Source: Trichoplax sp. H2
Taxonomy: Eukaryota
NCBI GenBank assembly: GCA_003344405.1
Contig: NOWV01000001.1
Coordinates: 1,178,001-1,242,000, forward strand
Length of the DNA: 64,000 bases
Direction of reading: 5' to 3'
Under the pieces are notes generated by a model. It was not told where the DNA came from, did not search any database, and saw only the letters and a list, made by a program, of their open reading frames with translations. Made by a program: the position numbers and the translations under genes. Shown here in pieces: positions 1,855 to 48,500 of this stretch; within the stretch, counting starts at the first letter, position 1; each line of letters starts with the position of its first letter.

Positions 1855-2030
1855 ATTGTATACAGTATATTCTACTGTACAGTGTACAGTGTACAGTAGA
1901 ACACAGACACAGTAGACAGTACTGTACTGTCCAATGGCACGGCACACACACTCTTGATACAGTATTGCAGGAAGTCGTTGATAGCGCAGTCAGTAGCCAG
2001 TGTACTGTGTACTGTACTGTACAGTATGTA
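1855..2030. repeat. TACAG/CTGTA-rich array upstream of the first carboxypeptidase gene
   Basis: Runs such as tactgtacagtgtacagtgtacag and gtactgtgtactgtactgtacagt. Confidence 0.8.
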
Positions 2031-2344
2031 TCCAACGCAAGAATGGACACCACTCGAATAAGCTGGGCTGACTCTTCCTACAGTTCGACTCAGTCCGGTA
2101 TGATGGGTGTGGAAGACGCGTCAGTCAATCACAACTCGCTATTTCATGACGACAATAGATCTCCAAAGGAAGTTCCTATTGCTATTGTTCTCCACTTTAG
2201 TTTCTTTTGTCTTACTGGTTGCCTGGTCGATGTTACGGTTGCCCAGTGTCAGCCCATTGCTCGGTTCAACCTTTGTCATTGTATGGCGCTAGACTGCAAT
2301 CACTCTCATACTTGATTCTACAAATTGTAAATCATCAATTGATG

Positions 2345-3130
2345 ACTGCAACAACAAATATTGTAGACGAATTGTGAATTTCCATCAAAGTTGACAGCCA
2401 ACGTAGGAAAAGCGACATGGTTGATTTCAACTGACAGTTTCGATCTCGTCCAATGAACGATTGAAGTTGATTATCCACAGTTTTCTACCTACGCAGTTAT
2501 CGCAAGTTCATCGATCTTGTGCGTTTATATAAACAACATTGCTGGTGATTCCAAATCTTTAACCAATTGTTAACGTTCATTAGGGTGGACAAGCGGTGTG
2601 GAAAAACGACTTGGCTCATTCCAACTCCATATTTTGATCTTGCTAAATCAACTATTGAAGCTGGCTATCCATACTTTTCCACCAACAGAGTTAGCGCATG
2701 GTAATCAATCTTTTACGTGTATAAGTAGCATTGTTGGTGATACCAAAATCTTCAATTAATTGTCAACATTCATAAAAGCGGACAGTCAGCATAGAACAAC
2801 CACTCCACTGATTCTAGCTCAGTATTAAACTCTTACCAAATCAACCATTGATGTTGGCTATCAACAGTTTTCAATCAACTGAGTCATCGTAAGACAATCT
2901 ATCTTATAATACGTCTATAAACGACATTGTTGGTGATTAGAAATCTTGCAGAATTGACAAATTGTCAACATTCACAAGGGCTGACACACAGTGTAGAAAA
3001 GCGCCTTGGCTGATTCCAACCCGGTTTTGAAATCTTCTCAAATCGATTGTTAAAGTTTACTATCGAGAATTTTCTACTGACAGTACTGGGTTATCGTGGG
3101 GGTAATCGATCTTTTATATAAACAACACAG
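2345..3130. repeat. Degenerate ~190-200 bp tandem repeat, about 4 copies
   Basis: ATAAACAACATTG(C/T)TGGTGAT...AATCTT...AATTGTCAACATTCA-like blocks begin at ~2529, 2721 and 2917, with a partial copy at ~3118 and a more diverged copy from ~2345. Confidence 0.8.
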
Positions 3131-3261
3131 TCGGTATTGAAAAACTTGACAAAATTTATCCTTCAAGTTGAATCTGCCTACTCCAATTCAAAAAAAAAAA
3201 CTCCACGCTTGACGATATCATCAAATATTTATATTGACTGGTGACCAACAAGGAAAGAAAA

Positions 3262-4728
3262 ATGGAAGACGAACTATTAGATGAAACACAACATGGAGGT
3301 AAAGTGGCGTTAGAATTTGTCCAGAAAAAGCGATTCTCATCCAAAATCTATGCGGCTATCGTGGTTTTTGTAATAGCAGTAATTTTAATAGCAGTCTTAA
3401 TCACTCTCTTTGCTACCGGTGTCATCGGCGGCAACAAGGCTCAAACTCCAACCAATGTAACCAATGTTACTATCAATGGTGTACCAGGAGAACGCTGGGA
3501 TTATGTCACCGTTCGACCTGGAGCGCATATGTTCTACATGTTTTATGGCTCAACAAAGACAACACCTTCACGCGATCAGTTGCCTTTAATCCTATGGTTG
3601 CAAGGTGGTCCGGGTGGATCGTCCACTGGATTTGGTAACTTTGCAGAAATTGGCCCGTTAGATATTAATCTGAAGCCAAGGAAATCTACTTGGCTATCGC
3701 GAGCCAACTTATTGTTTATAGATAATCCTGTAGGTACTGGATGGAGTTACGTTGATAATTCCTCCTTGTATACCACCGATGTGGATCAAATTGCTTCCGA
3801 TCTCGTCGTAGCTATCAAAGTTATATTCAATCAAATTCCTAAAATGAGAAAAGTACCATTCTATATTTTTGCTGAGTCGTATGGTGGAAAGATGACTGTA
3901 GCATTTGCAATCCAATTGAAAAAGGCTATTGCTTCCAATAGTATTCAATGCAATTTTCATGGAGTAGCCCTTGGAGATTCATGGATATCACCTTATGATT
4001 ATGTTAACACTTGGGGACCATACTTATTTGCTTTATCGTTATTGGATAAGAAGGAAGAAAAATCGGTCCAATATTACTCATCCTCTATTGCACAAGCAAT
4101 GAAAAATCAACAGTATCAAAATGCTACTAATTTGTGGCGATCAGCAGAACGATACATAGAATTGGTAACTGGGAATGTCAATTTTTACAATGTTTTATCG
4201 CATCGCTACCGTTTCTCCTCTAAAAAACGAGAGCAGTCGGAACAAGAAAAACTTGAAGCTTATTATCATTCTAGAGTTCGCCGATCATCGGGGCGCACAC
4301 TTTCTTCAGTCATGAATAGTGATGTCAGGAAAATGTTAGGAAGTATCATTCCTTCTAATGTTGTATGGGCTGGCCAAGCAAATCAAGTCTTTGCATATCA
4401 AGAAATTGATTTTATGAAGCCAGTGATTGATAGAGTAGATGAGTTGTTAAATATGAATGTTACTGTTGCCGTCTATAACGGCCAATTAGACGTTATATGC
4501 GATACCTTGGGTACGGAAGCTTGGATGGCAAAATTAAAATGGAAAAATTTGCAAAACTTCCAAAGTGCTAAGAAGCACATTATGAAATTAAGCAACAAAT
4601 CAGTTGCTGGCTTTTATAAAAAATTCAATAATCTGTCCTTATTTTGGATACTGAAAGCTGGTCATATGGTACCCATTGATGCACCTGACGCTGCACTACA
4701 AATGGTAGATACCATACTCACATTTTAA
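3262..4728 (+). CDS. SCPEP1: Serine carboxypeptidase (S10), SCPEP1/RISC-like, paralog A; intronless; N-terminal membrane anchor
   Basis: Motifs WLQGGPGGSS, FIDNPVGTGWSY, AESYGGK (catalytic Ser), NGQLDVIC (Asp) and AGHMVP (His). First ATG is at 3262. Hydrophobic segment IYAAIVVFVIAVILIAVLITLFATGVI. Confidence 0.92.
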   Translation: MEDELLDETQHGGKVALEFVQKKRFSSKIYAAIVVFVIAVILIAVLITLFATGVIGGNKAQTPTNVTNVTINGVPGERWDYVTVRPGAHMFYMFYGSTKTTPSRDQLPLILWLQGGPGGSSTGFGNFAEIGPLDINLKPRKSTWLSRANLLFIDNPVGTGWSYVDNSSLYTTDVDQIASDLVVAIKVIFNQIPKMRKVPFYIFAESYGGKMTVAFAIQLKKAIASNSIQCNFHGVALGDSWISPYDYVNTWGPYLFALSLLDKKEEKSVQYYSSSIAQAMKNQQYQNATNLWRSAERYIELVTGNVNFYNVLSHRYRFSSKKREQSEQEKLEAYYHSRVRRSSGRTLSSVMNSDVRKMLGSIIPSNVVWAGQANQVFAYQEIDFMKPVIDRVDELLNMNVTVAVYNGQLDVICDTLGTEAWMAKLKWKNLQNFQSAKKHIMKLSNKSVAGFYKKFNNLSLFWILKAGHMVPIDAPDAALQMVDTILTF

Positions 4729-7700
4729 TAAGAACGACCCTACAATTTCTTGATATACATGCATTTTCTCCGATGTATGTAGTTGGCATAATGCATACAG
4801 TATCTTAACACAGGAGTAGCTTTTAGTAATATGTAGTTTTGCTTTAACGGGTTTGAAGATGATATCCATCAATGGTTTAAAGTACTCACATGTATAAGAT
4901 AGCAAATGCTACTCAAAAATACTTTGGCAATCTTAACTGTGGATACATTTTAAATTATCATAAGTCATTACTGCATGATACGATTAAATTAAACATGATT
5001 TCATGCCTTATTTCTTTATTCTTTATGTTAATATTATTCCTGATTCAATCTATAACATGTTATTAACTTATTCTGTAGCAATTATTATCTTTGCAATTAA
5101 CGAAACATTGAACCATTTGTCATTTTAAAAATATTATTATACTGTAGCTTGATTTATAGGCTATAACCAAATAGAATAGATTTCGTTTATATCGTAAAAA
5201 TTCTTTCTTGTTGTATATATATCAGGAAAATGTTATTAATAAAATTAATTTGCTTGTGATTTAAGACAACTAGAATTTACTCTATCGTTTGTAAAGTATT
5301 ACTTTGTAGCAAGATATCCAACAATAAGAATAAAACTACGTCTCAACAAAAGATGATTTATGAACGTTCTGATTGTATGTATAATAGTTAAAAATAGGGT
5401 TTAGTAGTTTTCATTTCTTTTATTAATAATACTTCATAATCTGCCATGTTATAAGAAATGGTCAAATTCCAGTAAATTCTATCTATAGGATGGCATTGTA
5501 TTATTGACATCATGTTCTCATAGTAGCAAAATCTATTTTTCTTGTTTTTTAATGTATTGCTATCTGGCAGTGGCGATATCTTACCTTTGTAAACGGCATT
5601 TCTATGTAAATCCTCAACAATGGCAATAAAAATCTGTCAACGAAAGACTGCTCTATCCGCATATTCGTTTCCTATAGCTCTCTAATAAAGTAGAGACTAT
5701 TAGATTTCCGCCTGTAACTTAACAACTTTTTTTAATAAAATGTACTAATCGTATACTAGGGTAATTATGGTAATGATACTTATTTTCTCAATTATAGCAA
5801 CTGTAAGATGAATAGAACTAGACTTGGTGATATATCTTGAGATTCGAAGAATTTTTTGCCAAGTAAACCTTAAATAGAATTATGGAGTAGTATCGTTATT
5901 TGAACGGAATCGTAGCAATAAACTTCAAATATGTGTACACCACTACGAGTTTTTGATTAGATTGAATCAATTCTAGCCTACACGACGACAATAATTTCAG
6001 TAGATAAATGCTTCATCGCGCTTTGATACATTTAGAGTATAGTACATATGAACAGGTGCAGAGAAAAAAATAAAGTGATTTCTGTAATATTTATTTAATT
6101 AGTTAATGATAACATAACCAGTATTGGGTGAAATCTTATAAAAATTTAGTCTATTTCTGTTTAAAACATATTGTAACTGCATTATGATTTCCTTTATAAA
6201 ACAGTATTAATTGGCGTCAATTTATGTTTACGTAATTTTAAGGTGATGTGATCCAGGCAAAGTATATTTAATGATATGAATTACAAAGCATGTATGTTTA
6301 ATTTTTCCATAGTTATACAAATTTCTTTTCATGAAATAGTGGAAATTGTTTTAGAGTCTAATTAAATGACTTTGACGAAATATGGTATACCGTAAGTAAG
6401 AAACATCATACTGGAGTAGGTTGCTTTATTTTAAGGCTTTATTTTTTATATAGTATACGTTATTTTCTTCCTATAACAGGGATAATCTCTCATAAATGTC
6501 CATAAAACAGGTTTATTGCTATAGTTCATGATAAAACCAAAGCGACTAGGGTGTATATTTATTTAGTAATAGACTAAAAAATTTAGATCCATTAGACCAT
6601 TAGCAAGGAATACTCTCTTGGCAAAACGGCCATAAACGACTGATAGTAAGTACCCCATAGAAAATACTGTATACTAAGGATTGACTAGATACCAAACCCT
6701 ATTACTGCAAAGGATTACTATTATTGTATACGGAAATGATGTAGAAAATTAATTTTTCTAAATATGAAGCAGACATTACCTGTATTTGTATATTTATTAA
6801 AATGATACAGGTATTTATTTCATTCTTATTGACAACAGTACTTATGATACATGATTAAAATCCATAATAGCAGGGAAAATTAAATGAGAATCTTTATATA
6901 ATTTATATGGCTTTAGGATCTTTAATTAATTTATAGTAATACTTATTCATAAATTAGCTTGAAGTAAGGCGATGACAACAATAATAAAAATTTGATGTTA
7001 GTAAATTAGGTTAAAAAGACATTTCATATTGTATATTATTCAATAGCTTTACAATGGACATTCGGCAAATCCTTTTTCCTGTACCATGACTACAAAAGTT
7101 TATGATTAACTTTTGTACAGTTTCAAAGTACAGTCTAAACTAATATAATTTCTTTCTGTATTTCATTATTTAAGAGAATTTTCTCTATAAAATCTAATAA
7201 AGCTTTGAAAATGATTTCAAGTGGCAATATTTCACGATCAATTTATCAATAAATCATTAAACATTAAGAAATATCCAACTGCCAACACTACATCTTTTGG
7301 TGACTTTTATTTATTGTGATAGTTTTGGCATTAATATTGTAGCTTGATAAATGGCCTTGAAATTATTCAGAGTAATAAAATAGTTTAAAATATCGTAAAA
7401 GTTTGAAGAATTATCAGTTATTCTAGCCGTATTGTAATGTTAAAGGCGCATATATTACTATTCTATTAGAAACTGAATTTCTTTGTTCCTCGGCAAAGAC
7501 TTGCGTTTGTTACCTAAAGATAGCTATAGTCTTATTTATTATCTGTCATAAGTAATGGCTCTCTCTCTATATATCTATGTTAACTTTTCGAAATAAAAAA
7601 AAAGATGAATAAAAAAGAGAGCTGCCCTATACATCCTTGCCGCACAGGTTATAAATATTAACTTTTCTATTATATCTTTGACAATCAGTCTTTATTTTAA

Positions 7701-10700
7701 TGGAATGCTTCACACATGCAATGGGCATTATAAATAGATTTTTGTTTATGCTTTATATTCTCTCTAGAATATGAAATACGCACATATATGGATTCATCGG
7801 AATTTCATAGCAAGGATAGTCTACAATCTTACCATTATTTAGTTCATCACCTGTAATACGAGACAGAAGAAATATTTATGTCGCAAACGTTATATTCCGA
7901 TCTCTTATTTTTATTCTATAAAATAGTTCATCATCATGCAGTATTTTACTAATATCTAGTAACTTAAAGCAATTAATGAAACTCACCTAGGGTCCTTTCA
8001 TCCTGCGATATCAGTATGCTAGTCTCTAATACGTACAGCTTCATGCGAAAAGATTTCGTTCTAAGATAGCGGATAAAATAGAGTTAAGATCATATTTTTT
8101 AATTTTTAGCCTTCACTATCATATTTAAAATAGCACTAACTACTTCTTTATTCAGCTTGCATACTTGTAATTGCGATTATTTAATTTCAAGTGCTCCACA
8201 ACTAAATGTAAAATGATATTATTTACTTCTTTACCCAAGTAGTACATTCTTACTCACGAACTATGCATTCTTAGAGATAAATATAATAGCGGTACGATAT
8301 AATCGTTGCCAGTCTGAAAATATTCTATCATAGAATTTCTGTGAAGAATGACCTTCGTTAGTAAAAAACGGGTAGCCAGTTCGAATTAGATAGGATTTTC
8401 TGTATAAATCTATATTGTTTTAAATAAGGCATATTGTCCCTGTAATGGATCCAGCCTTGTTCAGTGGCTGAGTATTTCAGGAAAGAAGTACAGAAGTAGT
8501 AACCTAATTTTAATGCCAGTATATGTAAAGCTAAGGCATACAATAAACCGTATTGAGAAATAAAAGCTGATAATTAAAACTCTTCAGTCAATCTGAATGG
8601 CATAATACTGGATTTCTATTTATATAAATACTTTCGTATCTGGTAAACCAGTTCGCAGTCGATGGCTGTAATTTCAATGAAAGGAACGTAAAATGCTTCA
8701 TTTTTGTAATATGTAAAGCTGAAAGTTATTCTATGGATGTTATTGAAGAATTGTGAGCATTGCGCTATTTACTTCTCAGTTATATTCCTTTCATTAAATT
8801 ATATGAAAGAAATAGTCTTGCTAATAATGATATCCTACTAGGAAAGAACATACAGACAGTTTTATTCGTCATTTGTAGTCGAATTTCATCGCTATAAAGT
8901 TGGAATACATTCTGAGTTGAACAGTTTCACGTTGCATTTTAAATTCATATCTTTTTTGGGGTACTCTTTATAAATTAGGCGTCATTAAATTACGAGTAGA
9001 TTTAAAAGATGTTATAGACTTACAATGCCCTGTACTTTATTCGCTATTAATGGTCTATTTGCAAATGATGCACAATTTCTTATGGAAACTCTATATAATC
9101 AATCCTTCTCTAAAGTGCTTAGCTTCATCCATTACCGGTAATGCCTTATAGTGTGTCTATACGACTTATTTTTCGAAAATTCTGGACAAATCATATTTTT
9201 TGCTAACATTACGGTAACGTTAGCTCTAGCGATGTTGTTGGCATTGCTGTTTAGGTCATTCTATGATTAAAGGCTAAAAATCGAATACTTGGTGTTGATT
9301 CCATACAAATATCGGAATATTTAATTAACGTAACACCAAAAGGATTAATGTAACATTAGTAAAAATTTTTAATAGCTAAAAGGAAGTATGATAGCCTTTA
9401 ACTTTTGATAGTCACACTACAGAATTTCTTCATAAGGCTACTTATAACAATAAAAACGGAAACACAGTTTACAGCGGTTACAATGTTAGAGTAAATTCTA
9501 AAATTTTTAGTTTTCATCTTGACATTAGATCGAATAGCTTTGAAATGTTTTCAGTTTATTCCATAGAATTTTAATGCTTAAATTTTAGGATCATTTTCTA
9601 GCAGCAGAAAAACGGGTTGGTATTGCTGGTAATTTTTAGATTACACTATCAGAATTTACTGCCCAAAATCACTGATAGTTTTCAGTAGCATTAAGGATAG
9701 GATTACAACTGCCAATTTTGGCTATAAAATTAAGGTTAAAATCATTATTCGGAGTAGTTGCAATAACGAAAAATAATTTCGATTTGCTATGATATTAAAG
9801 TGATTAAATCATACAGATTGAATATTTTCAGATTATTTCAATTAATATTTAGCATCTCAATTCAAATCCACACCGTTTTCAGAAACATAAAATAGTGACC
9901 AATATTAAGACTATATTATCATAAACGGTATTATAACTTCTTACAATAACGGACCAAAGAAAACTTCTAATTTACTATAGCGCTAAAGCAATAATATTGT
10001 ACCGACTCAGATAGTCTCTGATTCATTAGGATATAAATTTCAAAACTATATCTTAAAGCAATCCTACTTTCTGCTATAAAAAATTGGATCGTTGTGATCA
10101 TTGAGCTGAAATAAAGGAACAAAGAAAGTTATTAATATCATTTATCACCATAAGAATAGATTTCCATATAGGGAATATCCTTGCAAAACTTTAAAAAAAA
10201 TAACATATTTTCATTCTAGCAGCATTGGCTATAGTACAAATAACGCTATTATACCGATTGCAAATGTAAATACTTTAAGAAAGGCAGTGAAAAATTAAAA
10301 ATTTTCCTTCAATGCCCGACATTTTTCAAAATGTGAATTATTTACTTGATCTATTGTCCGCTAGGCGAGTTTCTAGTATGCATTAGCTAGTCTTTAACGT
10401 GTTCATCGAGATTTTATCAACCTATACACTGGCTAATTGATCATGAGGATATTTGATTAATTTAATTTTCTTTTTGCTGATTAAATATTATGACTAACCC
10501 CGTGGCGACCCGCGAATACTTATGGATAACTGAACACGCATGTCTAAAATTCTCAATTTATAATTAAAATTGAGCAAAATCTTTTATTCCAAATTTGTCA
10601 AGAATAAAGAAAAGTGCTATTCATCTTGACTGGATTTAAATTGATTGAAGCGATCACTGAAAAGAAAGTAACTCTTCAAAATTGTTGGCTATCAACATTA

Positions 10701-11165
10701 TTAGAAAGACTAAAAATAAATTATAACGTTCCAGCAATATTTCAACTTCTTTACTAAATAGAAAAGTAAAGTACAGTATTTTTGATTCTTATTTTTAGAT
10801 TTTATTTTCTCCTAACTAATATCAAGTTGATTTCTAGTTTATAACTATCACATAGCTTATAACCATCCTTATCGATTAAGATTTGGATAAGGAAAATAGG
10901 AGTTAAATACCCTATACGTATCTATTCAATTTTGATCTATTTCGAATCTACTGCAACGGTATTGAAGTTCTAATAAACTGCGCACTTTCGGTTTGATCTA
11001 CTTTACAAATTTGATATAGTGATCATTTTCTGATTAAATTATTGACTAACGAAGAGATTTTCCTGTTTACTGATAACACGACAGATTAAAGATTACTTTA
11101 TTTTACAATAGAAATTGAAGATTTAAGTTTAAAATAGCGAAGATTGACAATCTTAAAATGTTAAC

Positions 11166-12539
11166 ATGCTGTTAAGACATCAAAACCCCGCTAAGGTTAT
11201 TTATAAGGCAGTCCAGTTTCTCCTTGCGGTAATTACTGTTGCAGCAAGCATACGTGCTGGGACTCCAAATATCGTGAAGGAAGGTGCGGACACATTGGTC
11301 AACAAAAATACTCATATTCCTACAGATTTACTTGGCAAGAAATGGTCTTATGTAACTGTTAGACCAGGTGTGCATATGTTTTGGTGGTACTATCCATGCA
11401 GAAACAGTTTCAAGACCAAAAGCCAACAAATACCATTAGTGATATGGTTACAAGGTGGGCCAGGAGAAGCTGCTAGTGGTATGGGAAATTTTTTAGAAAT
11501 TGGTCCGTATGATATGCATTGGCGTACTCGAAATACAACTTGGGCCAATAAAGTTCATTTATTATTTATTGATAGTCCTGTAGGGACAGGCTTTAGCTAC
11601 GCTGATAATTTATCGTTATATGCACGAGATGAGCACCAAATTGCTACCGATTTATTCTCAGTATTAAGAGATTTCTATAGCGCAGTACCAGATATGCATC
11701 AATTGCCCTTGTACATCTTTGGCCAGTCCTACGGTGGTAAAATGGCAGTTTCATTTGCATCTTTACTAACGCAAGCCATTGCTGATACTAGAATCCAATG
11801 TAATCTTACTGGAATCGGCCTATTCGATCCATTAATATCGCCTATAGATACTGTGACATCCTATATTGATTATTACAAAGCTTTCTCTTTAATGGATGAC
11901 AATGAAGCTAAATTGGCTCATGAATACGTTTATAAAATTACCCAATTAATCAATAAACAACAATTTGATCAAGCATCCACAACTTTAATACAATTGCTTA
12001 CGTATATCGTAGATGCTACTGGTCTAGTTGATGTCTATAATGTACTTCGACATGTTGATCATAATCCATTTACACCATCTCATCGTATCAACAATAGTAG
12101 TGAAGAAGTATTATTATCACAATTGATGAATGGCCCAATAAGGAACGCATTAGGCAACATACCTCAAAATTTAACCTGGTATCCTGGCAATGGTCAAGTC
12201 TATCAAATATTAGGAAACGACATCATGCAATCAGTTACCGATAAAATAGATGGCCTACTAAGTGATAATATAACAGTTGCTGTCTTTACTGGCCAATTTG
12301 ATGGTTTAACTAATACCATCGGCACACAAGCATGGATAGATAAACTAAAGTGGTCAGATTTGTATCAATATCAGCAAATTGATAAAGTACCAATATATGA
12401 TCAGGATAATATCATAGCATTTACTAAGAACTATAAGCAATTTTCCTATCATTGGATACTAAATGCTGGCCATTATGCAATTAGAGACGCTCCTGATACT
12501 ACATTTACACTTTTCCAAAAAGTTATTGGTGTTCTTTAA
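11166..12539 (+). CDS. Serine carboxypeptidase (S10), SCPEP1-like, paralog B; intronless; probable signal peptide
   Basis: Motifs WLQGGPG, FIDSPVGTGFSY, GQSYGGK, GQFDGL and NAGHY. Colinear with paralog A. Confidence 0.9.
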   Translation: MLLRHQNPAKVIYKAVQFLLAVITVAASIRAGTPNIVKEGADTLVNKNTHIPTDLLGKKWSYVTVRPGVHMFWWYYPCRNSFKTKSQQIPLVIWLQGGPGEAASGMGNFLEIGPYDMHWRTRNTTWANKVHLLFIDSPVGTGFSYADNLSLYARDEHQIATDLFSVLRDFYSAVPDMHQLPLYIFGQSYGGKMAVSFASLLTQAIADTRIQCNLTGIGLFDPLISPIDTVTSYIDYYKAFSLMDDNEAKLAHEYVYKITQLINKQQFDQASTTLIQLLTYIVDATGLVDVYNVLRHVDHNPFTPSHRINNSSEEVLLSQLMNGPIRNALGNIPQNLTWYPGNGQVYQILGNDIMQSVTDKIDGLLSDNITVAVFTGQFDGLTNTIGTQAWIDKLKWSDLYQYQQIDKVPIYDQDNIIAFTKNYKQFSYHWILNAGHYAIRDAPDTTFTLFQKVIGVL

Positions 12540-17000: not shown

Positions 17001-17645
17001 ATGTCATAGGAACTTAACTAATAATTAATTGTATTATTTATATATTATTATCGTTACTTGTCTTGGAGATCTTCTCTAATTTTCATATCATGACGATGTT
17101 GTTGTAGTAATACATATAAGTGATTCAATAATTCAATGGTTAAAGTACGCGAATTTTCTGATGACGCTTGTAGGGCCTGAAATCCATGTACTTGTAATTC
17201 CTAGAAAAGTGTATTAAAATGGAGAATTAATCTTATCTTATTACCCTAACCTATCCATGAATATCATCCTTATCAACTGCATTACAATATATATCAAAGA
17301 AAATCTTATGTAGCTGGAAGCCTAAAAGAGGTCAAACTGTGTCAATTTGAAAAATACAACTCATTTAATGAACAGAATAGTAATAGTTCTGAGGCACTAC
17401 TGTACTTTATCCATGAACAAGTGAGACACTGCAGTATCAGCAGGTACGGTTTCTAATGGAAATAGCTCAAGTTTAGTCATGCTAAAGTAATTTGTACACT
17501 GAGTTACGTTGTAGTGATTCCTAGTTAAATGATGATAAAATTTCATCCATACCTGGTTCATATACGTTATACAGTCGTTAACGTTATCATCACCGGAACA
17601 AAACCGATTTTCTTTTTCTTCTTTTAATGCATAAAATGATTCCAT
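14094..17645 (-). CDS. SSX2IP: SSX2IP/ADIP (Msd1-like) centriolar-satellite coiled-coil protein, multi-exon
   Basis: Spliced exons give FCSGDDNVNDCITYMNQ|ELQVHGF, GKRAVWKTKAK|DDEEMYQSIV and KESLEKERALVAEAAVKLNRE|RKEFESDR, matching recalled SSX2IP motifs ([44 protein letters not shown]). Exon 1 is 17645-17553 and exon 2 is 17200-17058. The 3' end is less certain. Confidence 0.8.
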
Positions 17646-18279: not shown

Positions 18280-18362
18280 GTATACTGCATTACACGCCAA
18301 TACACGGTATACAGTAACTGTAATCACTCGGCCATCCACCAGTACTGTACTAGTGTACAGTA
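18280..18362. repeat. Short TACAG/CTGTA array upstream of SSX2IP
   Basis: tatacagtaactgta and cagtactgtactagtgtacagta. Confidence 0.65.
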
Positions 18363-22840: not shown

Positions 22841-23616
22841 GGAGAAGATGAATTTTCCACCTTGGGAGACCACTCACGTATGTTGGTCATGGACAGGGGG
22901 TTATGGGTTGTGGTCGACTTATTACTCTACTGTCCCGAACAGCTCCTAGCTCAATACGCTTGCGTAGGATCATCATTAGCGTAGGCTGGAGGTTTCCCAT
23001 CGCTGTCTCAGTCGGTGCGGACACTGTACCATGTAACAGTGCAACAGCTGGTCTATTCCTGTAAGTTGTTGACTGTACTACGTTACTGTAGCCAGTTTGA
23101 TCACAGTACGTACAGTGTACAGTACAATCCAGTCCATCCCAATGATACTGTACCTTGTGCATAATAAGTTGTCACCTTCTCCCTTAAAAAGAGAATAAGC
23201 TCCTTGTTACTTTTTGGGGAGAAGGATGACAACTGCTATGTAAAGAGGATACCATTCTGATACTGTACTGTACAGTGTACAGTACTGTAGTCTCTGATGA
23301 AACGTACTGTACACTGTACAGTACTGTACTGTACTGTACTGTACTGTACTGTACACTGTACGCCCAATGTGTACAGTGTACAGTGTACAGTCTACAGTGA
23401 ATATGTACTTTGCACTGTATCCTTGTACTGTACTGTACTGTATAGCGTAGCGCGGTCGAAACGAGTCTAAACTACAGTACTGTACAGTACTATAGGCAAT
23501 GCAACATCAGCGATGTTGAGCTAGCTACTGCTATTTCCATCAAAATCCTTCATCTTTGAAGTGCGAGGTTGTCTGGCGATTGCTTGGCTTTTACAACAAG
23601 CTACAACAACTGTAAA
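22841..23616. promoter_or_regulatory. Bidirectional promoter DBT/CWC27 containing a dense (CTGTA)n/(TACAG)n array
   Basis: Divergent ATGs at 22840 and 23617. Pentamer arrays at ~23060-23160 and 23260-23495, e.g. gtactgtactgtactgtactgtactgtact. Confidence 0.8.
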
Positions 23617-30697: not shown

Positions 30698-30714
30698 CTT
30701 GACTGGTATAGCGT

Positions 30715-31450
30715 CTACTGTAGTTTTAACAGTACTGCCCGTTTTTGTACGGTCTACAGTCTGTAGTTGACTGTGACTGTACGGTACAGTCCGCCTGTCT
30801 TTCTGTACAGTACCGCGTACAGTACATGATACTGTGCACTGTAGGCATTTTACACGTCTGTACAGTACAGTGTACTGTACTGTACAGTACTATAAGATAC
30901 TCGAAGTAGTCAGTGCTTAGTTGAAAACATTAGAGCTTGAGTCTGTCTGTCTGAGACAAAAAAGACATCAGATTCAAGGTGGAAAACGTTAGAACTTGAG
31001 TCTGTCTGAGACAGAATGGCCATCAGATTCAAGATGGATATTTCAACACGTCTGTACAGTACAGTACTGTAGCCATAGAATACTGTACTGTAGATATTCG
31101 AAGTAGCAAGTGCCTTAAATAGAAAACATTAGAGGTTAAGTCTGTCTGTCTGAAACAGGATGGACATTAGACCCAAGGGGATATTTTGATACGTCTGTAC
31201 AGTGTACAGTACTGTACGGTTAGTAGAAAACATTAGAGCTTGGGTCTGTCTGTCTGAAACAGGATGGACATCAGATTCAAGGGGGTATTTTGACATACAG
31301 TACAGTACTGTATCTGTACAGTACTGTATACTGTACTGTACTGTACAAGACTGTAGGAAACAGTTGAGCTTAAGTCTGTCTGTCTGAAACAGTACAGTAT
31401 TTTGACACATCTGTACGGGTAGAATACTGTAGATATTCCAAGTAGCCAGT
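30715..31450. repeat. Composite tandem repeat plus TACAG/CTGTA arrays in the NDUFA11 / EFCAB14-like bidirectional promoter
   Basis: GAAAACATTAGAGCTTGAGTCTGTCTGTCTGA...CATCAGATTCAAGG-like unit at ~30923, 30982, 31122, 31227 and 31357, interleaved with TACAG/CTGTA runs. Confidence 0.88.
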
Positions 31451-37467: not shown

Positions 37468-37604
37468 AATTTAAGATTTCCAATATTTGAATTACTTTAA
37501 GATAGACGTATGAAATAAAAACACTTCTAGAATTTTAAGATTTGGAATATTTGAATTACTTAAAGATAGACGTGTGAAATAAAAACACTTCTAGAATTTC
37601 AAGA
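37468..37604. repeat. Near-perfect ~65 bp direct tandem duplication, intergenic
   Basis: AATATTTGAATTACTT(T/A)AAGATAGACGT(A/G)TGAAATAAAAACACTTCTAGAATTT occurs twice. Confidence 0.9.
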
Positions 37605-40452
37605 CTACTTCATTTATAATTTACTTATGTAACAATTATTGCAACTTTGCAACCGAATTTTCCTTGTAATCATTAATTCAGTATACTTGTAGGATTACTA
37701 AAGAGTCGTAAAAAAGACAATTTAGTCATTGATATCCAGCTCATGTCGCTATTATTTACCACGATTGGAGCTATTAATATGTACATACACGAGTATATTT
37801 GCTGAAAGATAGTTACGCTAGTGTGAAAGAAACATCTACTATATTCGACAACTATGAAGCATCCGATGTATTTTAAGATTACAACATGAAACCTAATTAT
37901 TTCTATAGCTATTTTAAAGCTAATACAATTGTGGAGACCCTAGACCAACGGGAAAATTAGTTTAATTCTATCATTTAAAATTTCGTTTATTCGTTTTTAA
38001 CTTATAAAAGAGTTTTTAAAAAACAATTTTAATTACGGAAAACGTTAATGAGCATGAAAATAATAATTGTGCTATTTGAAAATTATGAATCATCTAAGAT
38101 ATTCACCTATAATGCAATGCGTATGGTTGTCTTATAATTTAATTACGAGCACTTCTGCAGCCATTATACAACTAACACAGTCGTGGAGATGTTTAGGGTA
38201 ATATTTAAATTACAGAGGGACGGATGCATGAGTTTGAAAATATAATACTATATTTGCATTACGTCAAAACTATGCAATTTCTACTACGATATATTGTATT
38301 TATAAAGCACGACATCAACTTAAACTGCATTCCTATAAGCATTAGTAGTTCAATGTCTGTAGGGATACTAAATTGAGAAAAGCATGTCATGCAATTATTT
38401 AACATTTAATATACAGTATATCGCTGTTTCCTTTAATCATGATTGACAATATTTAAATTACAGGATAGAGATGGGGATGCTAAAATAGCAACAAACCTAT
38501 CGATTAGTATCAGTGTTGACGACATCATTCGAATTTAGAGGGCAAAGGGCATTATTAAAAATTTAAATACTATCGTAATAGCCGTAGTATCTTCTAAAGC
38601 ACAAGAATGAAAAGATTTTTTAGTCAAGCATAATCTAAATCTCGTGAGAACATCTCTAAGGCTCGAGTCGTCATTATTCTGAATGAAATTTTATTCAATC
38701 TCGATTTACAATCAAATCTACAATAAAACAATTAGAATACTAAATTTTGCATCATCCTCTATTGTAGAGAGTCTAAAAATAAAGTTTTAATGTTTTATAG
38801 CTCAGTTATTGCTTCTTCTAGAGTACCGATCTCATGCTTTGTGAATAACTAGTCATGAATTAATACTTATACTTGATTATCCTGGCCTATCTCCTATACC
38901 GTATTACGATACCGCTTACCATCCTAGAATCAACGAAAAATCGACTTCGTTATGCAATATTTTATATATGGTACAATTTCATGTATAGCCACCGTTCACA
39001 GAATACAATTTGTACAGACACGAAGTTGAGGAAACAAATAGTGAATCATAAACCGTCTAAGCACATACACGTATCTCTCTTTAACCATGATCAATTTCTA
39101 AAAATGATTCAAGTATTAAAGAGTGAACATAATGTATGAAAATAATTAAGCACGTACAATTGTGCTGTATATTATTTCATAAATTATGTAATTTACCATG
39201 CAAGCGAGTACAGGATGTAAGAATTATATAATCATTGTCGTCTTTAAAATTTCTCTTCTTGTATACTGTAGCATAGTAAATATTAAGTAAGGAATACGGA
39301 TAATTGAATGATTAACCATCTAGGCGTACGTCTCTTTTTTGAATTATGGTAAATTTGGAAAATATTTAAATTTGGGCAGGATGAATATGTGAGAATGAAA
39401 ATATTTCAAATGCTTATTTATTTATTTATTTTATAAAGTGCATAATTTATCCTATCAAAACCTCTAAAAATTAAAAAGTTATTGCAATCTTTGACTTAGA
39501 TACACCCAAGGGCAATGACAGTACGTACGACCCACTAAATTTTCTCTTTTTCGATAAGCTACAGTAGCTTATTCTGGAGTAAATTACAAGATGGATAATT
39601 CACAATTCAATTTCTTTTGCTTCCATCTTGTCCATCTGTCATAGACGTCCGCTAACGAAGATATCACTATCCCATAGATGGTCCGTCATGTGATAATAGC
39701 ATGAGACTCATGCTTTATTTTACCCATATCCGAATCAGAACAAAGTTGATTATCCAGTACAAACCTAGTAACGCAAACTCTGACATGAGCAGTTTACCAA
39801 TCATTGCCTATACAAATTAGTCAAACAGCGATCTCTTGTTATTTTTAGGATTCCTTCGTCATCAGTGATGTCATTTAAAACTATTAAAACTATACTTAGC
39901 AATATAGTATTTTAAGAGTTAGTTACTGCAACATTGGCAGCCATTACTATTATAGCCGATTACTACGCCTCTCACGAGCATAATATAAAGAAAGAATCAA
40001 AGGCGGTTATTTCCATTAGTTAGCAAATGGTTGGATCAATTTGGGGGGAAGGAATGAATTGGATGTTTGATCTACCGGTAAAGGAAGATTAACGGAAGAG
40101 ATTTTAACGATCGTATACGTCTTGACTACAACTATTTCAATCTTGATCATTCATAATCAATCAACGTAGTAGAATTTGCAATTCTATGAACCAATTATTA
40201 ACGACAGTACAGAAGAAATGATATTGATAGAAGTGATTTGATTGCACTTGAACGAAAATTATCAAATTCCATTTTGTCATAATTTTAGCATACTTGAAGG
40301 CGTAATCATACTAATATACTAGAAAATCCATACAATCCACTTGGAGATTGTATTCTGTCATATTCAAAAGCGAAAGAATGTTGAACATAATAGAGAATAT
40401 AGGCAATTTAATCCGACTATCATCTATTAATTCAACTATCAACGATCCAGTT

Positions 40453-42153
40453 ATGGATAGCGATAAGCGTGCCGATGACGACTTACGTAAATATACTTGC
40501 TTACACGATCTAGAATATAACACCTCGGCGAATCATCAAGATAGTAATCTATCAGGCACTACATCTGACAAACAAATGTTAGATTTATATCTTCCAAAAG
40601 CCGCTGACCCATCAACAGTACCTATCGTCGTTTTTGTACATGGCGGTGGATGGAGACGAGGCGATAGAAAAGCATTTCGTTACTACTTTTCCAAATATGA
40701 TGTCAATTTATTAGCAGCAATGCTAATGGTGAGATGGGGCATTTATGAGAATGTGGGTAAAGCTTTCGCTCGTTCTGGCATAGCTTGCGCTGTTGTCTCT
40801 TACCGATTAAGTCGTTTGAAATTTCCCTATCTCATACTAGAATTACTAAGTTCTTTTCTAATGACTATGGCTATTATTTGCTGGCCAATTTTAGCCTATT
40901 CTTGGGTCATCGTACGCTACGTATTCGCTGCCACTCATTTTGCTATAACTCTAAACGATTGTCTAATGCTTTTATGGTCGACAACACCCTTGTTATTTGT
41001 AATTTTCTGTTTAAGCATGACAATTTATCCACCACCTAAGCGTACTATACTATTACTACCACTCTCGTTACTACTACTGTTAATTATAAATTATCTATCT
41101 CCATTCAAACCATATTTCCACTATTATATATTATACATAACCACGACAATAGCGATGTTGTCTTTATTGCAAACATTTCTAATGGATGATAAAGTTAATC
41201 ATCGTGACAGCAATATTGATGAAATCCGCCATCCTACGCATGTTAATGATGTCGCTTTAAGCGTCAAGTGGTTAACAGAATATGGTAAAAAGACGAAACT
41301 CTATAACCCTCAATCGTTATATCTATGCGGGCATTCTGCTGGTGGTCATATTATATCCTTACTATCCTTAGATCAATCTTACTTGAATAACGTAGGGGTC
41401 CAATCATCGAACGTGAAGGTAACTTAAAACTACACTTTAGTATCATGGAAATTGCTGCAAATTGCAACCTTAGATTGTTCACTAGTTTTAATGAACTTTC
41501 TATTACAAGCTTTAACTCTAGCTTTAATATTTTTAAAGATAAAATAACAGTAAAATCATCTATAAAGGTAATTTGATGAATTATAACTGTAGATTTAAGC
41601 TCTAGATTTAATAATCTCCACACTAAATACTCGTAGATTGGTACATTTCATACCTTAATTCGTAGCTATGCGTACAGTATTATAACTTAACAAAGTATTG
41701 ATAATGCAGTATGTAATTGCCGTTTAACCTGTCTTCATTTTTTTAATTATGATGTAGGCGGCAATAAGCATTTCTGGGGTATACGATCTTGGCTGGTTAT
41801 CGCGCTCCGTTCTTAAACAGTTTTATTTAAATCCAGCTTTTGGTAATGATCCAGCCACCTGGGTTAAAGCTTCACCTTATAATCATATTACTCGAGCTAA
41901 GAGTGAAATCACTCCACCTTTTCTAATAATTAACCCAAAACACGATTTTTTTCCTCTCCTCAATGATGCAAATCGATTTATGGCTAGCTTAAGAAAGAAT
42001 AACTTTAGGTGTAAACATTTTATCACTCCAAATAGAAATCATCTAACAATAATGAAAGAATTTGGATTGAAAGAACGGCCTTGCTGTGGTAATGTCGAAG
42101 AAATGTGTATTTTATTTATTTATCAATGTGAAGCAAACGCCATCGGTAACTAA
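40453..42153 (+). CDS. HSL-like alpha/beta hydrolase (kynurenine formamidase / isoprenylcysteine methylesterase-like) with an internal transmembrane insert; 2 exons
   Basis: LDLYLP, VVFVHGGGWRRGD, SYRLS, HVNDVA, LCGHSAGGH. Intron 41419-41757. Exon 2 encodes AAISISGVYDL...ASP...HDFF...NHLTI. The start could alternatively be the ATG at 40378. Confidence 0.85.
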
Positions 42154-42238
42154 TCAACTGTCCAATTGTATCTTTTAATTAACATTTGTTCTATTACTGC
42201 CTTGTTAAATATATTTCAGTAAGTAGTGAAATTGGTAG

Positions 42239-42960
42239 TCCATATACTCACGATAGCTATCAAAATCAATAACAGTAGACAGTATACAACAGTATATGTA
42301 TTAGTGCAGTAATGAAATGAGTGAATATTTCCACTAATATATTTTATATACTGATACTGCTTTAAGTCCTGTCCTGACGGTGATGAATGCTACGGATTAC
42401 AACATATCTATGTATTATAACTATCAACTCTATACTTAATCACATTTATACCGACAGCAATTTTGAATTTGAAATATTTAAACTGGAGAAACTTTCGCTC
42501 CACACAGTTTGTATTAAAATTTCATGTCAAGTTCACAATTTTATTTTTGAAATACACAGGCTTATTACGTGATTTACAAAAGATATTATTCTAATAAAAT
42601 TATTAAAAATGACTATCAAATTTTGTAGATGTACTAGCTATCAATCTCTGTTCACAATGAACAGTTAGTCCCACTCGTAGTTGTCTTTAACGAGCGTACT
42701 GTCCTTTCTGAAACTAGTGCTTTATGTATTATTTGGCCACTTTTTCTGTAAGTTTAGTGTACTGTACAGTATAGTAGCATATGCATTCATATAAAGCAAG
42801 ATGAGATCATTGAGCTACTAAGCATGCGAACCAACAGCGATTTAAATAATTAGAGTGTGTATGAAGCAATTACTCCATCAGTACAGTAGATTTTTAACTA
42901 TTAATCTTAGCATCAAATATCATGAATTAACTATAATTAATAATATAATCAGTAATCAGA
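42239..42960 (-). pseudogene. Internally deleted tandem duplicate of the ORC1 locus (intron 1/exon 2 fragment joined to a 3' flank copy)
   Basis: 42680-42955 aligns by eye with 46555-46790, and 42239-42645 aligns with 43057-43443. Confidence 0.75.
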
Positions 42961-43448
42961 AATAAAAAATTAGTCTAGAATAACCTTGGCATTTTTACAA
43001 ATTAAGTGTATTGGTAATAAAATACTATTTAATGAATTCTTCACATAATATACATTCCATATACTCACGATGGCTATTGAAATCAATGATAGACAGTATA
43101 CAAACAATACATACATTTAATACAGTCTTTTAAAAACGAAATGATTTGCACTAAGTATTTTTCATACTGATACTATTTTAAGTCCAGTACCGACATAACG
43201 AATGTTACCTATTACAACATATACCTATGAATCACAAACCATGAATTTTATTTACATGAAAGTCGCCATCAATTTTAACTTAAAATATTTTAACAGCCGA
43301 AAATTTTGCTCTATACGGTTTGCATTAAAATTTCATATAGGATTCACGTTTTATTGATGAAATACACAGGGTTATCACGTAATTTACAAAAGATATTCTA
43401 ATAAAATAACTATCGAACTCATAAATGTATACGAATTATCAATGTTAA

Positions 43449-46400
43449 TTAAGATTGCATAGCACTCTGAACGGCATAACTTACATCGTCCTGACTGACG
43501 TTTAATCTAATCTTCGCCAGCTGGGCACAACCGGGTTCTACTAGTAGCAACTTGCAGGAACCCAATCTTTGGCATAACTTAAGTACCTCCGATGGGCTGC
43601 ATACCATAATTCCTAGTAAGAAATATTTAGTTAAAAATTAATAGATAATAAAGCATGCAGTAGCAACTTAACTTTAATATTTATAGTTAAAATAATAACC
43701 TTCCGTTCGGCAAATAGATACATACTGTTCATAAACCTATGCAGAGAAAATAACGTAAGCTGCACATTTATCAAAATTAATATAATGATTTCAAGGAATT
43801 TACAAACCTCTTTAAAAACTGTCTCTTCAACTCCGCTCAATCGAAAAGATACAATAACGGCGCGAAGAAATAACTGTTCATGTACGGAAGCGTTTCTGCA
43901 AAGGATTGCAATGACATTTTTCATAAAATCGATATCATGGATTACCGATCAACTCTGTACGAGCAAATACCTTATAGCGGCTATCTTCGGAGATGAAAAC
44001 ATCTCAGAAATAGCTGTTGCTACATGTTTCATTTCTACCTTTGCGTCGCTACTGTTATCTAAATCTTGCCCTTTGTCTAACTGCTGATTAACAATCTCGA
44101 CAGCTCTGCGACAGATATCTAACGTACGCCTAACATCTCCAGATACTGCAGCAACCTGGTATAATTTATGAATATAAAAAATATCGTAATGGCAATTAGA
44201 CAATGTAAATTGGATTTAAAGGAAGCAATAACACAAATTCAAATATCATCATTATGGAATACTGTATATCATGTAATAACTTTTTAAACTATTTACCTTT
44301 CTAGCCACGAACTGAATCGCATCTGGGCTAAATATTTCCTCCAAATTAGCTAGACGTGCTCGTATAATACGTTCTAACTGATTAAAACTGTACGGCTGAA
44401 AAGTTAATCGAGTCAACCCCTATCAATAAAAATTATAGACATCCTATTTAACTGTTTATATAATTAATCGAATACTCAATTAAAGAATAGCAGTGATCAT
44501 TTCCACCTTACCAATCTACTAGAAACCCTATTGATCATTGTTCGCTCCGGTAGATCCATGGTATTAGCAACAGCCAGTACAATTAAACGGGAGTAGCGAG
44601 CATTTGGCCAATCGAATAAGTTGTACATTACATGTTGTTTACGAGTCCATAGTAGGTCCAACTGAAAACGATATGAAAGACTACTATTAGTTGCGTAATT
44701 AATTTTTAATCAATTACACAAGAATTAAAGCATTAGCCTATGCTAAAGAGCCAGCTGTTTAATTCAAACCTCATCAACAAGTACAATAGTCGCATATTTT
44801 TGGTTAGAGTTAAAATATGTATTTAGAATGCTGGCGCTTCTTTCAGCTGCAGCCTTTTCTCCTGTTAATTGCTGAAATGAACCAATTTTTTACATTTTTC
44901 TTAACTTATTAAGTAAATTTGAGAATTTCTTTACGCAGATATGACAGTATTAAACACAATCATTGTATTACGACAGCAGATCCTTACCTTTAAAATTTCA
45001 ACATAGGCTTGACTTGGTTCTGTAAGTCTCATTCCGTTAATTTCGATAAATTTAAACTTTGGTATCTGCTTCGCTTGCACAGCTTGCCTTAGTTCTTGAA
45101 CTACTGAGTAAATTGTTGCAGTTTTCCCAGTTCCGGGTACTCCAGATATATACATACACCTAACGATTATATAATTATTTCTTAATTGCCATCGATACGT
45201 ATACATCATCCTATTTCCCATCAAATATATGATAGAAATGAATTCATAGTAGTCTAATTAATGATAATCGTAAGGACAATAAAAATTTATGACCAACATG
45301 ACAGTAACTTTAGTTCCACATTACTTATTAATATGAATAGGTAAGTTTACAATCTAATTGTGATACTATAATAACATAGGCATTGCATATTGATATCTAT
45401 GTTGCATCATTAACTTTGTAGCAGTTATATATATAGGAAATACATAAAATTAAAAAATATACGTACATACCCTCCACACTTATCCAATAATTTACTAGAA
45501 ATAAAATCGTAAATGTTAGCGTATTCTTCCTCACGACACGGTAGCGGTCCGACGACTTCGCTTATTTTTAAGCTATAACATAATATTTTTGTTAATAATT
45601 ATAATTCTATTTATTATTTGACTACGTATTTTACATTCTAGGAGATAGTAATACTGTGTATGTGTATAGACTGGCATTGCAATCATGAACCATAAATACT
45701 TATGGTCTGCTTGTATAGTAATCCTTAGCCAACATTATGTTCTTACTAATTCTGCATTATTTGTTATAAATTTTTAATTGGATTAGAGATATTTAGCCAG
45801 TCAATCCAATTTATGATTCGCTTATTAAATGCATGAAAAAAGGGGGTAGATATCTACCGTAGAGATAGGATTAGTATGAGTTTATAGAAAGCGAGTGTAT
45901 TGTTGTACTTAATTTTCCGTGGTATATGAACCAGCGCAGATTACAGTACTGAATTCGGTATAAGAACGTCTATCAGTGGATTGCGTATATAGCCAGAACA
46001 GCAGCTACTTTACTTTATATATATTTTACAGTTTTTTTCTAACGTTATCTAGTACACCACAGACTACAGCTACACCTGATGACGGTTTGAAGCCTTTCAT
46101 GATTTCGATATCGGAAGCAGATTGTTACTATTTACCGTATATAAATTCCATCGTCTTTATATCGATCAGTAAGTACGTACAAGTTTTTCACTTTCAATAA
46201 TATAAGTTATTGCGTTCGGCAGGTACCATGAACTTTTGGACTCAATAACTCGTGTCTCGTAAAATACACGTCACTGTGACTAAATGCCCATAGCCACGTG
46301 TGAGTACTAATCTCTAATCATCATATTGGATCTATTACTGTGATCATCTAGTCTTACATTTTATGCAAGTACGTGTGCTATTGAATATGATAAAGTCACG

Positions 46401-47103
46401 GTCTACCAAGGAATCATAAAAAGTTTTGAGTAAACATTATTAAACTTACCAGAGTCTATTTCTAGTAGATGATTTGCTATTCTTTATTATTGTAGCTGGT
46501 CTGTCATTAGCCGCCGTATCAGCGGTCTTCAAGGTATTGATAGTCTCACTGGTAGGCGTCTTCAACGAGCGTATTGTTCTCTTGGAAACTAGTAGTTTAT
46601 GTGGTAATTGGGCACTTTTGCTGTAAGTTTAACACATATATGCGTGTAAAACAAGAGTAAGATCATTCTGTTACTAAGCATATGAATCAGCAATGACTTT
46701 GCGTATATATGATGCAACTATTCCCTTAATATTCGATTTCTGACTATTTCTCTTAGCATTAAATACCATGCATTAATTATAATTCAGAATCATGGTTATA
46801 AATAAATTTAAATTTATTGATGGTATTGTATAATCAACTTTTATACCGATATGTTATCAGATTATCTGAGTGTGCTTGGCAATATCTTAAAACAGAGATA
46901 ATTTCACCCTACGTAGACGGTATAAAGTATCTGGCGGCGTTTCTATTTCTACATTAGCTTATACGCGAAAGTAATCTGCATCCATTCGCAAACCTCGGTC
47001 TGGTGAGGGAATTTTTAGCTTTCGTTTTCATTGGGCTCATTAACGCAGAAGTTTTACAACTTCGTGTTATCCGACGTTTGATTGCACCTTTACCGATAGG
47101 CAT
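43449..47103 (-). CDS. ORC1: Origin recognition complex subunit 1, multi-exon
   Basis: [23 protein letters not shown] (Walker A); [62 protein letters not shown]-terminal [13 protein letters not shown]. The 5' exons (47103-~46997 and ~46601-46449) are less certain. Confidence 0.9.
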
Positions 47104-47497
47104 GATGTTGCTCTTTCTTTCCTCTCTAGTTTAACTCAATTTCTAAAAAGAAAGTGAGAGTTCAAGCTTATCATTACCAAGGAACATTACATGTAAAACA
47201 TGGCTGCATGTGTATTTTGACTAGAGTTTTTACATTTAAGATCGAATATACAGTAAGTCAATACCAGAGAAATGATGGATTGGATAGTTTGCACCGTTCA
47301 ATGACTTCAATAGACTCCAAGTACTTCAAAGCCTTTCGAAATTCTGATATTACCGAACTGCGTGGACCTTGCGTCTACTTGAGAATGATAGCCCCATCGC
47401 GATGGTTTATTGACGCATTTTATTGACAAGGTTGAGCAGAAGCTGGAGCTGGAGATTTACAGCTTGCAGGATTGCCTGGATACTGGATGCCGTCAGC

Positions 47498-48500
47498 CTA
47501 CAGTGTACAGTACTTTCGAATACAGTACTGTACAGTTGTACTGTACTTTACACTGTACGCTTGTGATCAGATGTGATAATAACTTACTGTACTGTATATT
47601 ATATCAGAATGCAGACAAGTTATGCAGCACTATTTTGGATAAAAATCCATTTAAAAGATGGATGTAGACACAAGAATACACCAAGAATTTTCGATATTGA
47701 ATGCTATGTATTGCTCCATGAGTGTTGTCATTTTGGAAAGCACTGATTGTCAGTGCCATGTAGTCTACAGAACATGATTACCATACAGTTTTACTTCGAA
47801 ATCGGGCCCCCCCCCATGACAAAGCTCACGGAACAGTAGATAGGGCTCAATCTTGTCATGAATTTCGATGAATGAATTTTGATCCCCAAATGATCAATCT
47901 TAATGCCTGCACAATCTTAAATCACAAATACTGAAGGTGAGAACTTGTACTTGCTCAAATACTGTAAATGAGTACGCTTTTCATCAACTAGTTAATTTAA
48001 TTACCGGAAACCATCAATGGCCGGGGCCGGGCAGCAGCCACCACTTCCGCTCGGTTACAGTACAGTACAGTACTGTAGAGTACAGTGTACAGTACAGATG
48101 AGTACTGGCAAGTACAGTACAGTACTGTAGAGTACAGTACAGTGTACAGTACAGTACTGTACAGATGAGTACTAGCAAGTACTGTACTGTACACTGTACA
48201 GTATACTGTAGTACCGTGTTCTCTCCAGACCCGTAATCCGGTAAAGAAAAACGCGCCAAAGGTTCAAATACTGTCCTAGAGGGATTTGGGAGGTTTTTCC
48301 TTTGCCTGTAAGGCTTGTAGTAAGTGTTTGAGTGCATGGTACAGCACGCTAGCAGTTCACTACACATTACCGTGTAACGACGTGACACCCGTAGTCGACT
48401 GACATCAACAGTGGTGTGTAGCAAAATAAGACTGTCAACCTGTAGTCTAGTGACTTTAAAGGTTTGAAGCACCTTGGGAAAAGGCCAATCCAAAGGGTCA
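47498..48500. promoter_or_regulatory. ORC1/SASS6 bidirectional promoter with TACAG arrays and ETS-, E2F-, CHR- and CCAAT-like motifs
   Basis: Arrays at 47498-47600 and 48055-48212; ACTTCCG at 48043; CGCGCCAAA at 48252-48260; TTCAAA at 48263; TTTGAA at 48463; GGCCAATC at 48483. Confidence 0.7.

Follow-up and report, generated by a model that had tools for sequence, protein, structure and literature searches.

TAC(A/T)GTA clusters upstream of housekeeping genes in Trichoplax sp. H2: the known ACAGT repeat as a candidate array of protein-binding sites

A stretch of 64,000 nucleotides from the placozoan Trichoplax sp. H2 (contig NOWV01000001.1, positions 1,178,001 to 1,242,000 of the forward strand; referred to below as the window) contains dense arrays of the pentamer TACAG and its reverse complement CTGTA. 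The locus raises the question of what these arrays are: sites for a protein, a microsatellite or the remains of transposons. The original prediction placed six arrays of mixed orientation at gene 5' ends and considered them a possibly undescribed promoter signature. All six are present, at positions 1855-2030, 18280-18362, 23060-23495, 30715-31450, 47498-47600 and 48055-48212, and contain 10, 4, 31, 38, 9 and 21 units, respectively, with both orientations in every array. Here, a unit is either TACAG or CTGTA, and a region is called a cluster if it contains five or more units in 200 bp.

The arrays are real and strongly non-random. The window contains 322 units, compared to 139, 187 and 262 when the sequence is simulated by Markov models of order 1, 2 and 3 (30 simulations each, 90 in total), and 8 clusters, compared to simulated means of 0.07, 0.37 and 1.8. 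The peak density in the window is 23 units per 200 bp, whereas the simulated maximum of 9 was reached in one of the 90 simulations. Period-5 tandem arrays were also found by a tandem repeat scan. Four of the six arrays are far above the chance level, and the one at 1855-2030 (10 units per 200 bp) is narrowly above the best simulation. At 18280-18362 the cluster is weak, with 5 units per 200 bp, which is the chance level in the order-2 and order-3 simulations. Equally weak are two further clusters, at 1240-1369 within a 218-bp tandem repeat and at 57039-57223 in an intron of the BMP gene. The observation that only isolated units occur elsewhere in the window holds except for these two marginal cases.

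The arrays are almost certainly members of the published promoter-proximal (ACAGT)n microsatellite of Trichoplax. At 90% identity, two proteins encoded in the window cluster with proteins of Trichoplax adhaerens. Wang et al. (2010, Biol Direct 5:18, PMC2871265) counted perfect repeats of over 12 bp and found ACAGT to be the commonest microsatellite of T. adhaerens, accounting for 78% of the pentanucleotide simple sequence repeats. In that study, the first 1 kb upstream of a gene accounts for 54% of the ACAGT repeats and the first 5 kb for 85%, the repeats are enriched at translation and protein-modification genes (Gene Ontology), and the repeat was put forward as a factor binding site. The present arrays agree with that description in the Trichoplax host, in the dominance of ACAGT-class pentamers in the genome and in their concentration upstream of housekeeping genes. 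The promoter-repeat observation is therefore already known, having been in print since 2010, and the possibility that the signature is undescribed has to be abandoned. Neither ACAGT nor TACAG is found in the main text of Najle (2023, PMC10580291).

In the genome assembly (G000, 94.9 Mb) TACAGTACTGTA occurs at 7619 sites, compared to 20 sites for its reversed control. A sample of 40 evenly spaced 10-kb stretches from three contigs (399,720 bases, the 400-kb sample) contains 38 clusters, with at least one cluster in 21 of the 40 stretches, and the majority of its top enriched 10-mers belong to the TACAG/CTGTA family. The position of the clusters relative to genes was measured from Pfam matches, with flanks of 1.5 kb. 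The housekeeping proxy comprised 28 loci (13 proteasome genes, to which 23 exon matches were assigned, and all 15 LSM matches), and the proxy for cell-type-specific genes comprised the best 30 of 147 scored matches to G-protein-coupled receptors (GPCRs). An upstream cluster is present at 20 of the 28 housekeeping loci, a downstream cluster at 3 of the 28 (Fisher p = 7e-6). The corresponding upstream count for the best 30 of the 147 GPCR matches is 0 of 30 (p = 2e-9). In the window itself, 7 of 11 genes, including the marginal SSX2IP case, have a cluster within 1.5 kb upstream of the start, the starts being inferred ATGs, not mapped transcription start sites, and the most 5' exon found standing in for that of ORC1. 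None of the four convergent 3' gaps of the window reaches 5 units per 200 bp. A lineage-wide repeat signature with a housekeeping bias at gene 5' ends, as had been proposed, is supported. Two of the GPCR loci (L094 and L095) score identically, one being near a contig start and the other having a shortened flank; they are probably a single gene on overlapping contigs. Dense motif arrays are also found at the very beginning of one contig (G000:C1:773-1441, L001-L004), and arrays may break assemblies.

The unit of the arrays is the odd palindrome TAC-W-GTA (W being A or T), and neighbouring units are chained via a shared TA. GTAC cores are spaced by 5 bp in 577 pairs and by 7 bp in 140 pairs, whereas the 6-bp spacing is depleted (23 pairs). 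The centre base of the 5-bp spacing is A or T in 546 pairs and C or G in 31, and TACGG is a minor centre variant within arrays. The spacer of the 7-bp spacing is AGT or ACT in 102 of the 140 pairs. Genome-wide, GTACAGTGTAC occurs 7541 times and GTACTGTGTAC 512 times, and this 15-fold bias of AGT over TGT implies that the 7-bp step preserves TACAGT intact. GTAC reads the same on both strands, so that an apparent 'strand switch' amounts to one A/T substitution. The orientation differs in 119 of 289 neighbouring pairs and is the same in 170, a mild excess (p = 0.003). There is no strand bias relative to the direction of the gene (153 vs 128). Outside the arrays, TACWGTA is enriched 3.2-fold and TACSGTA 2.0-fold, compared to 0.9- to 1.7-fold for substitutions at the six outer positions. 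The proposal that two units span one helical turn turned out to be arithmetic only. A 10-bp phase was rejected, because it is broken by the frequent 7-bp step.

Short runs of TAC-W-GTA with a shared TA and free orientation are thus found upstream of broadly expressed genes and are absent upstream of GPCR genes. Their grammar is site-like: the A/T centre, the depletion of the 6-bp spacing, the AGT bias, the enrichment of single units and the lack of strand bias all support the binding-site reading. Independently, a model trained on Hi-C data selected repeating ACAGT as an insulation motif in T. adhaerens (PMC12817080). The clusters would be homotypic, orientation-independent binding sites for a placozoan DNA-binding protein that recognises a specific sequence, probably as a dimer. 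This putative protein would keep housekeeping and bidirectional promoters open and help such promoters to meet in the promoter hubs detected by Micro-C. The exchange of A and T at the centre of the unit would be tolerated, and turnover of the arrays would be supplied by local slippage and tandem duplication. Taken jointly, the identity with (ACAGT)n and this homotypic binding-site mechanism appear to us reasonably probable.

The hubs, which join housekeeping (GP1) genes in placozoans, were described by Kim et al. (2025, Nature 642:1097, PMC12221973). These authors report a motif, conserved in four placozoans, at housekeeping promoters that belong to about a third of the genes, together with data from the assay for transposase-accessible chromatin (ATAC), histone H3 lysine 4 trimethylation (H3K4me3) and loops. 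If their motif is the one described here, these data cover a large part of the check that the original prediction called for. The TAC-W-GTA clusters are probably this GP1/loop-anchor motif, the likeness being one of position and gene class; the motif was published as a logo figure, and its letters are found neither in the main text nor in the four of six supplements that are readable as text.

Several observations weigh against the binding-site reading and its link to the hub motif. At eight of the 28 housekeeping loci, the 1.5 kb upstream of the Pfam match contains no cluster, and the transcription start sites of the GPCR genes may be located more than 1.5 kb from theirs. With 3-kb flanks, the contrast at the proteasome genes is reduced to 12 of 13 upstream vs 7 of 13 downstream, probably because neighbouring promoters are close in a dense genome. 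The 7-mer is enriched in the GPCR loci too (2.85-fold, 70 vs 24.6), which suggests a genome-wide mutational source in addition to selection. The head-to-head gene pair directly to the left of the window holds 4 units only. Finally, the paper on the Chimaera Hi-C model (NAR 2026, PMC12817080), in which repeating ACGG and ACAGT are predicted insulation motifs of T. adhaerens, gives the transposon motif of Kim et al. as ACGG, not ACAGT. In the present genome (ACGG)3 has 9 occurrences, and the density of ACGG is flat (2.76 per kb at LSM and 2.34 at GPCR loci), whereas that of ACAGT differs fourfold (9.33 vs 2.36). The hub motif was therefore judged more likely to be of the ACAGT family, and ACGG was rejected as a promoter motif of this genome.

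Alternatively, the arrays could be a neutral or structural microsatellite, in which a promoter seed was amplified by slippage and local duplication and any effect is exerted through DNA physics (nucleosome exclusion, a hairpin or a cruciform) with no dedicated protein. The direct repeats within 51 arrays do exceed those of unit-shuffled controls (17.6 vs 14.4 bp, p = 0.001), and the mild excess of like-oriented neighbours points in the same direction. Single-strand folding is far beyond that of dinucleotide shuffles in three of the six window arrays (z of -9.5, -5.6 and -4.1), but not in the other three (z of -1.9, -0.8 and -1.1). The longest perfect inverted repeats of the 51 arrays (14.5 bp) match those of unit-shuffled (14.5 bp) and unit-flipped (14.8 bp) arrays, so that nothing points to selection for cruciforms, and this option was rejected. 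The palindromes that had been attributed to strand switches are given by the unit itself, and extra symmetry was not found. Furthermore, the runs have few units (1067 are single, 139 are double and 10 have at least 5 units), and the preference for AGT over TGT is not expected from dinucleotide slippage. On balance, a neutral or structural microsatellite is unlikely.

A different origin is suggested by the footprints that transposons leave on excision. The units could be stacked footprints of a CAG-ended Tc1/mariner or pogo element hopping into the TA sites of open promoters, each excision leaving TA-CAG-TA or TA-CTG-TA at random and making new TA targets. In that case, the arrays would be a record of open chromatin and not its cause, or would have been co-opted later. 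TACAGTA and TACTGTA, with their free A/T centre, are identical to the two canonical footprints of Sleeping Beauty (bioRxiv 10.1101/659086). The commonest inserts between consecutive TA sites in 98 arrays are CAG/CTG in 883 cases, empty in 238, C/G in 185, A/T in 122 and CACTG/CAGTG in 117. The orientation switches between neighbours are too many for pure slippage, and single TACWGTA units are enriched far from arrays. However, non-canonical footprints, which constitute more than half of those in the Sleeping Beauty assay of the same preprint, are not enriched outside the arrays: the ratios are 0.8 for TACATA, 0.9 for TACGTA, 1.0 for TACTA and 0.9 for TATA, although the test is less sensitive for the shortest words, given the order-2 background. 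TACAGTGTA is missing from the eight Sleeping Beauty footprints given in the preprint. A clean insertion converting TA into TA-CWG-TA was not seen among the indels of 25 minisatellites, a comparison of low power because the indels are few and unpolarised.

A cognate CAG-ended element was not found either. Only two DDE_3 and three DDE_1 loci were found in the assembly, one broken and four with intact single open reading frames (ORFs), none with convincing terminal inverted repeats (TIRs) within 1.5 kb of the match, and Wang et al. did not find an active element. We consider stacked footprints an improbable origin of the arrays. The broken locus (L130:~1370-2550, -) is a Tc1-like transposase interrupted by an in-frame stop and, apparently, by an intron; a matching TIR pair was not found for it. 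The intact, intronless 359-aa Tc1-like ORF at L131:892-1968 (+) has HTH_28, HTH_32 and DDE_3 domains. As there is no convincing TIR in its vicinity, it resembles a domesticated transposase, and speculatively it is a candidate DNA binder. Three further ORFs, of 525, 413 and 373 aa (L136:1039-2616, -; L137:877-2118, +; L138:1393-2514, -), are pogo/CENP-B-like (DDE_1), intact and intronless; they have no convincing TIRs either and are probably domesticated.

Kim et al. also report a density of EDTA-annotated Mutator elements at GP1 promoters and a TIR consensus resembling the loop-anchor motif in four placozoans, and Wang et al. list 6 MuDR-like fragments in T. adhaerens, from which the arrays could be regarded as Mutator TIRs inserted into, or domesticated at, active promoters. 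No match to MULE (PF10551) or Transposase_mut (PF00872) was found in the assembly by an exon-wise search, a loose first look that does not prove absence. Long TIRs and internal sequence shared across loci were not found either: in the 300-bp flanks of 98 arrays, no motif-free 16-mer is common to more than two loci. A spacer of 60-70 bp, present in four to five copies between the sub-arrays of the NDUFA11 promoter (window 30915-31400), has only 4 occurrences in the whole genome, all at that promoter, and a dispersed repeat behind it was rejected. The arrays are therefore not pieces of one long dispersed element.

Mutator elements create target-site duplications (TSDs) of 8-11 bp. A TIR-plus-TSD rule with this length range, written for this analysis and distinct from EDTA, is passed by arrays alone: it accepts four of the five array regions in the window vs 0 of 4 control regions, and 7 of 15 LSM loci vs 2 of 30 GPCR loci, whereas none of 45 shuffles passes. 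Palindromic units pass such a rule trivially, so that it is uninformative on arrays. TIR-Learner applies no copy-number filter and has a false discovery rate of 31-57% in rice (PMC6913007). The 'Mutator TIR' label may thus be an artefact of structural annotation, in which arrays mimic a TIR plus a TSD, and a Mutator origin of the arrays is very doubtful. We would give slightly less credence still to a composite of these ideas, in which the hub motif is a non-Mutator TAC-W-GTA code, seeded by stacked Tc1/pogo-type footprints and read by a domesticated transposase-derived protein (e.g. one of the L131 and L136-L138 ORFs) that would tether housekeeping promoters in an animal without CTCF.

The genes of the window were identified from translations and by scanning 137 selected open frames against Pfam. 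Together, these support two S10 serine carboxypeptidases (+), DBT (-), a cyclophilin (+), a Tim17-family gene (-), an alpha/beta hydrolase (+), an ORC1/Cdc6-family gene (-) and a BMP/TGF-beta ligand (-). The matches of an ADIP/SSX2IP-like gene (-; PF11559, E = 1.4e-4) and of SAS-6 (+; PF16531, E = 4.3e-4) are below the cut-off. We take the cyclophilin to be CWC27, from its N-terminus, and the Tim17-family gene presumably is NDUFA11. The names given earlier to DBT, the ORC1-Cdc6 family and SAS-6 agree with these assignments, whereas both 'carboxypeptidases' are corrected to serine carboxypeptidase S10. The label 'EFCAB14-like' of a transmembrane (TM)/coiled-coil gene is unconfirmed, as the Pfam scan contains no EF-hand match.

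All three head-to-head pairs that had been proposed, DBT/CWC27, NDUFA11/TM-coiled-coil gene and ORC1/SAS-6, are supported by Pfam or translations and have clusters in their gaps. The 775-bp gap between DBT (ATG 22840, -; PF00198/PF02817/PF00364) and CWC27 (ATG 23617, +; PF00160) contains a dense cluster at 23024-23495, with 31 units in 23060-23495 and the peak density of the window. Sub-clusters at 30715-31450 are positioned between the NDUFA11-like gene (ATG 30697, -; PF02466), which the first units approach to about 20 bp upstream, and the TM/coiled-coil gene (inferred ATG 31980, +). The cluster at 47498-47600 is on the ORC1 side of the ORC1/SAS-6 gap (AAA, AAA_lid_10 and Cdc6_C exons, - strand). 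The dense cluster at 48055-48212 precedes the SAS-6 ATG (48647, +) by about 435 bp and has a 52-57 bp higher-order duplication, with Tandem Repeats Finder periods of 5, 52 and 57. The weak cluster at 18280-18362 precedes the inferred ATG (17645, -) of the ADIP/SSX2IP-like gene by about 640 bp. The second carboxypeptidase, the hydrolase and the BMP gene have 1-3 units per 200 bp within 1.5 kb upstream, in agreement with the original prediction. The chance-level intronic cluster of the BMP gene (57039-57223, 5 units) is flanked by exons at 55897-56904 and 57816-58274.

The cluster at 1855-2030, in which 8 TACWGTA are found, is 1.2 kb from the first S10 gene of the window (PF00450; 1.23 kb upstream of the ATG at 3262). 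It adjoins a local tandem repeat of 218-235 bp (1076-1852, about 3.5 copies), the copies of which differ by motif units gained or lost at TA sites next to TACGCGTA. This 8-mer is 8-fold enriched outside arrays (64 vs 7.7). Three intronless S10 genes are arranged in tandem (L023:8549-9886, +; window 3238-4728; window 11157-12539), with 4, 10 and 1 upstream units per 200 bp, respectively, a natural case of array turnover between paralogues. The first of them is head-to-head with what we assume to be an XPF/ERCC4-like gene.

Both the repeat with its upstream position and the idea of a binding site were thus published in 2010, and the 2025 study probably linked the same element to promoter hubs. 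What is added here is the definition of the unit as TAC(A/T)GTA instead of a directional pentamer, the sharp separation of housekeeping and GPCR genes, the absence of an indication of cruciform selection, and the finding that arrays alone can mimic a Mutator annotation. The residual value lies in the sharper unit and in a testable doubt over the Mutator label. The TACWGTA unit would also give a handle on a loop-organising protein in animals that lack CTCF.

The closest known system is the (ACAGT)n repeat of Wang et al., with which the arrays share the genus, the pentamer (TACAG and CTGTA are rotations of ACAGT and ACTGT), the upstream position, the housekeeping bias and the binding-site proposal; mixed orientation, the TAC-W-GTA unit, the 7-bp step and the absence at GPCR genes are not described in the sections of that paper drawn on here. 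The GP1/loop-anchor motif of Kim et al. is similar in its presence at housekeeping promoters and absence at cell-type-specific genes, represented here by the proteasome/LSM and GPCR proxies. The ACAGT motif of Chimaera is the same pentamer, tied in silico to insulation, but it is a model prediction only, with no gene-level anatomy. Sleeping Beauty footprints are known as single scars, whereas the units described here are accompanied neither by enriched shorter footprints nor by a matching active element. In composition the arrays are not CpG-island-like, as they have 40% G+C and an observed-to-expected CpG ratio of 0.69, compared to 0.95 outside. GAGA repeats in Drosophila and CpG islands in vertebrates are low-complexity promoter signatures tied to open chromatin, and we know of no equivalent of the GAGA factor that binds the Trichoplax arrays. 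As promoter signatures, these two systems nevertheless provide a working analogy, by which the arrays may be served by a dedicated factor of their own.

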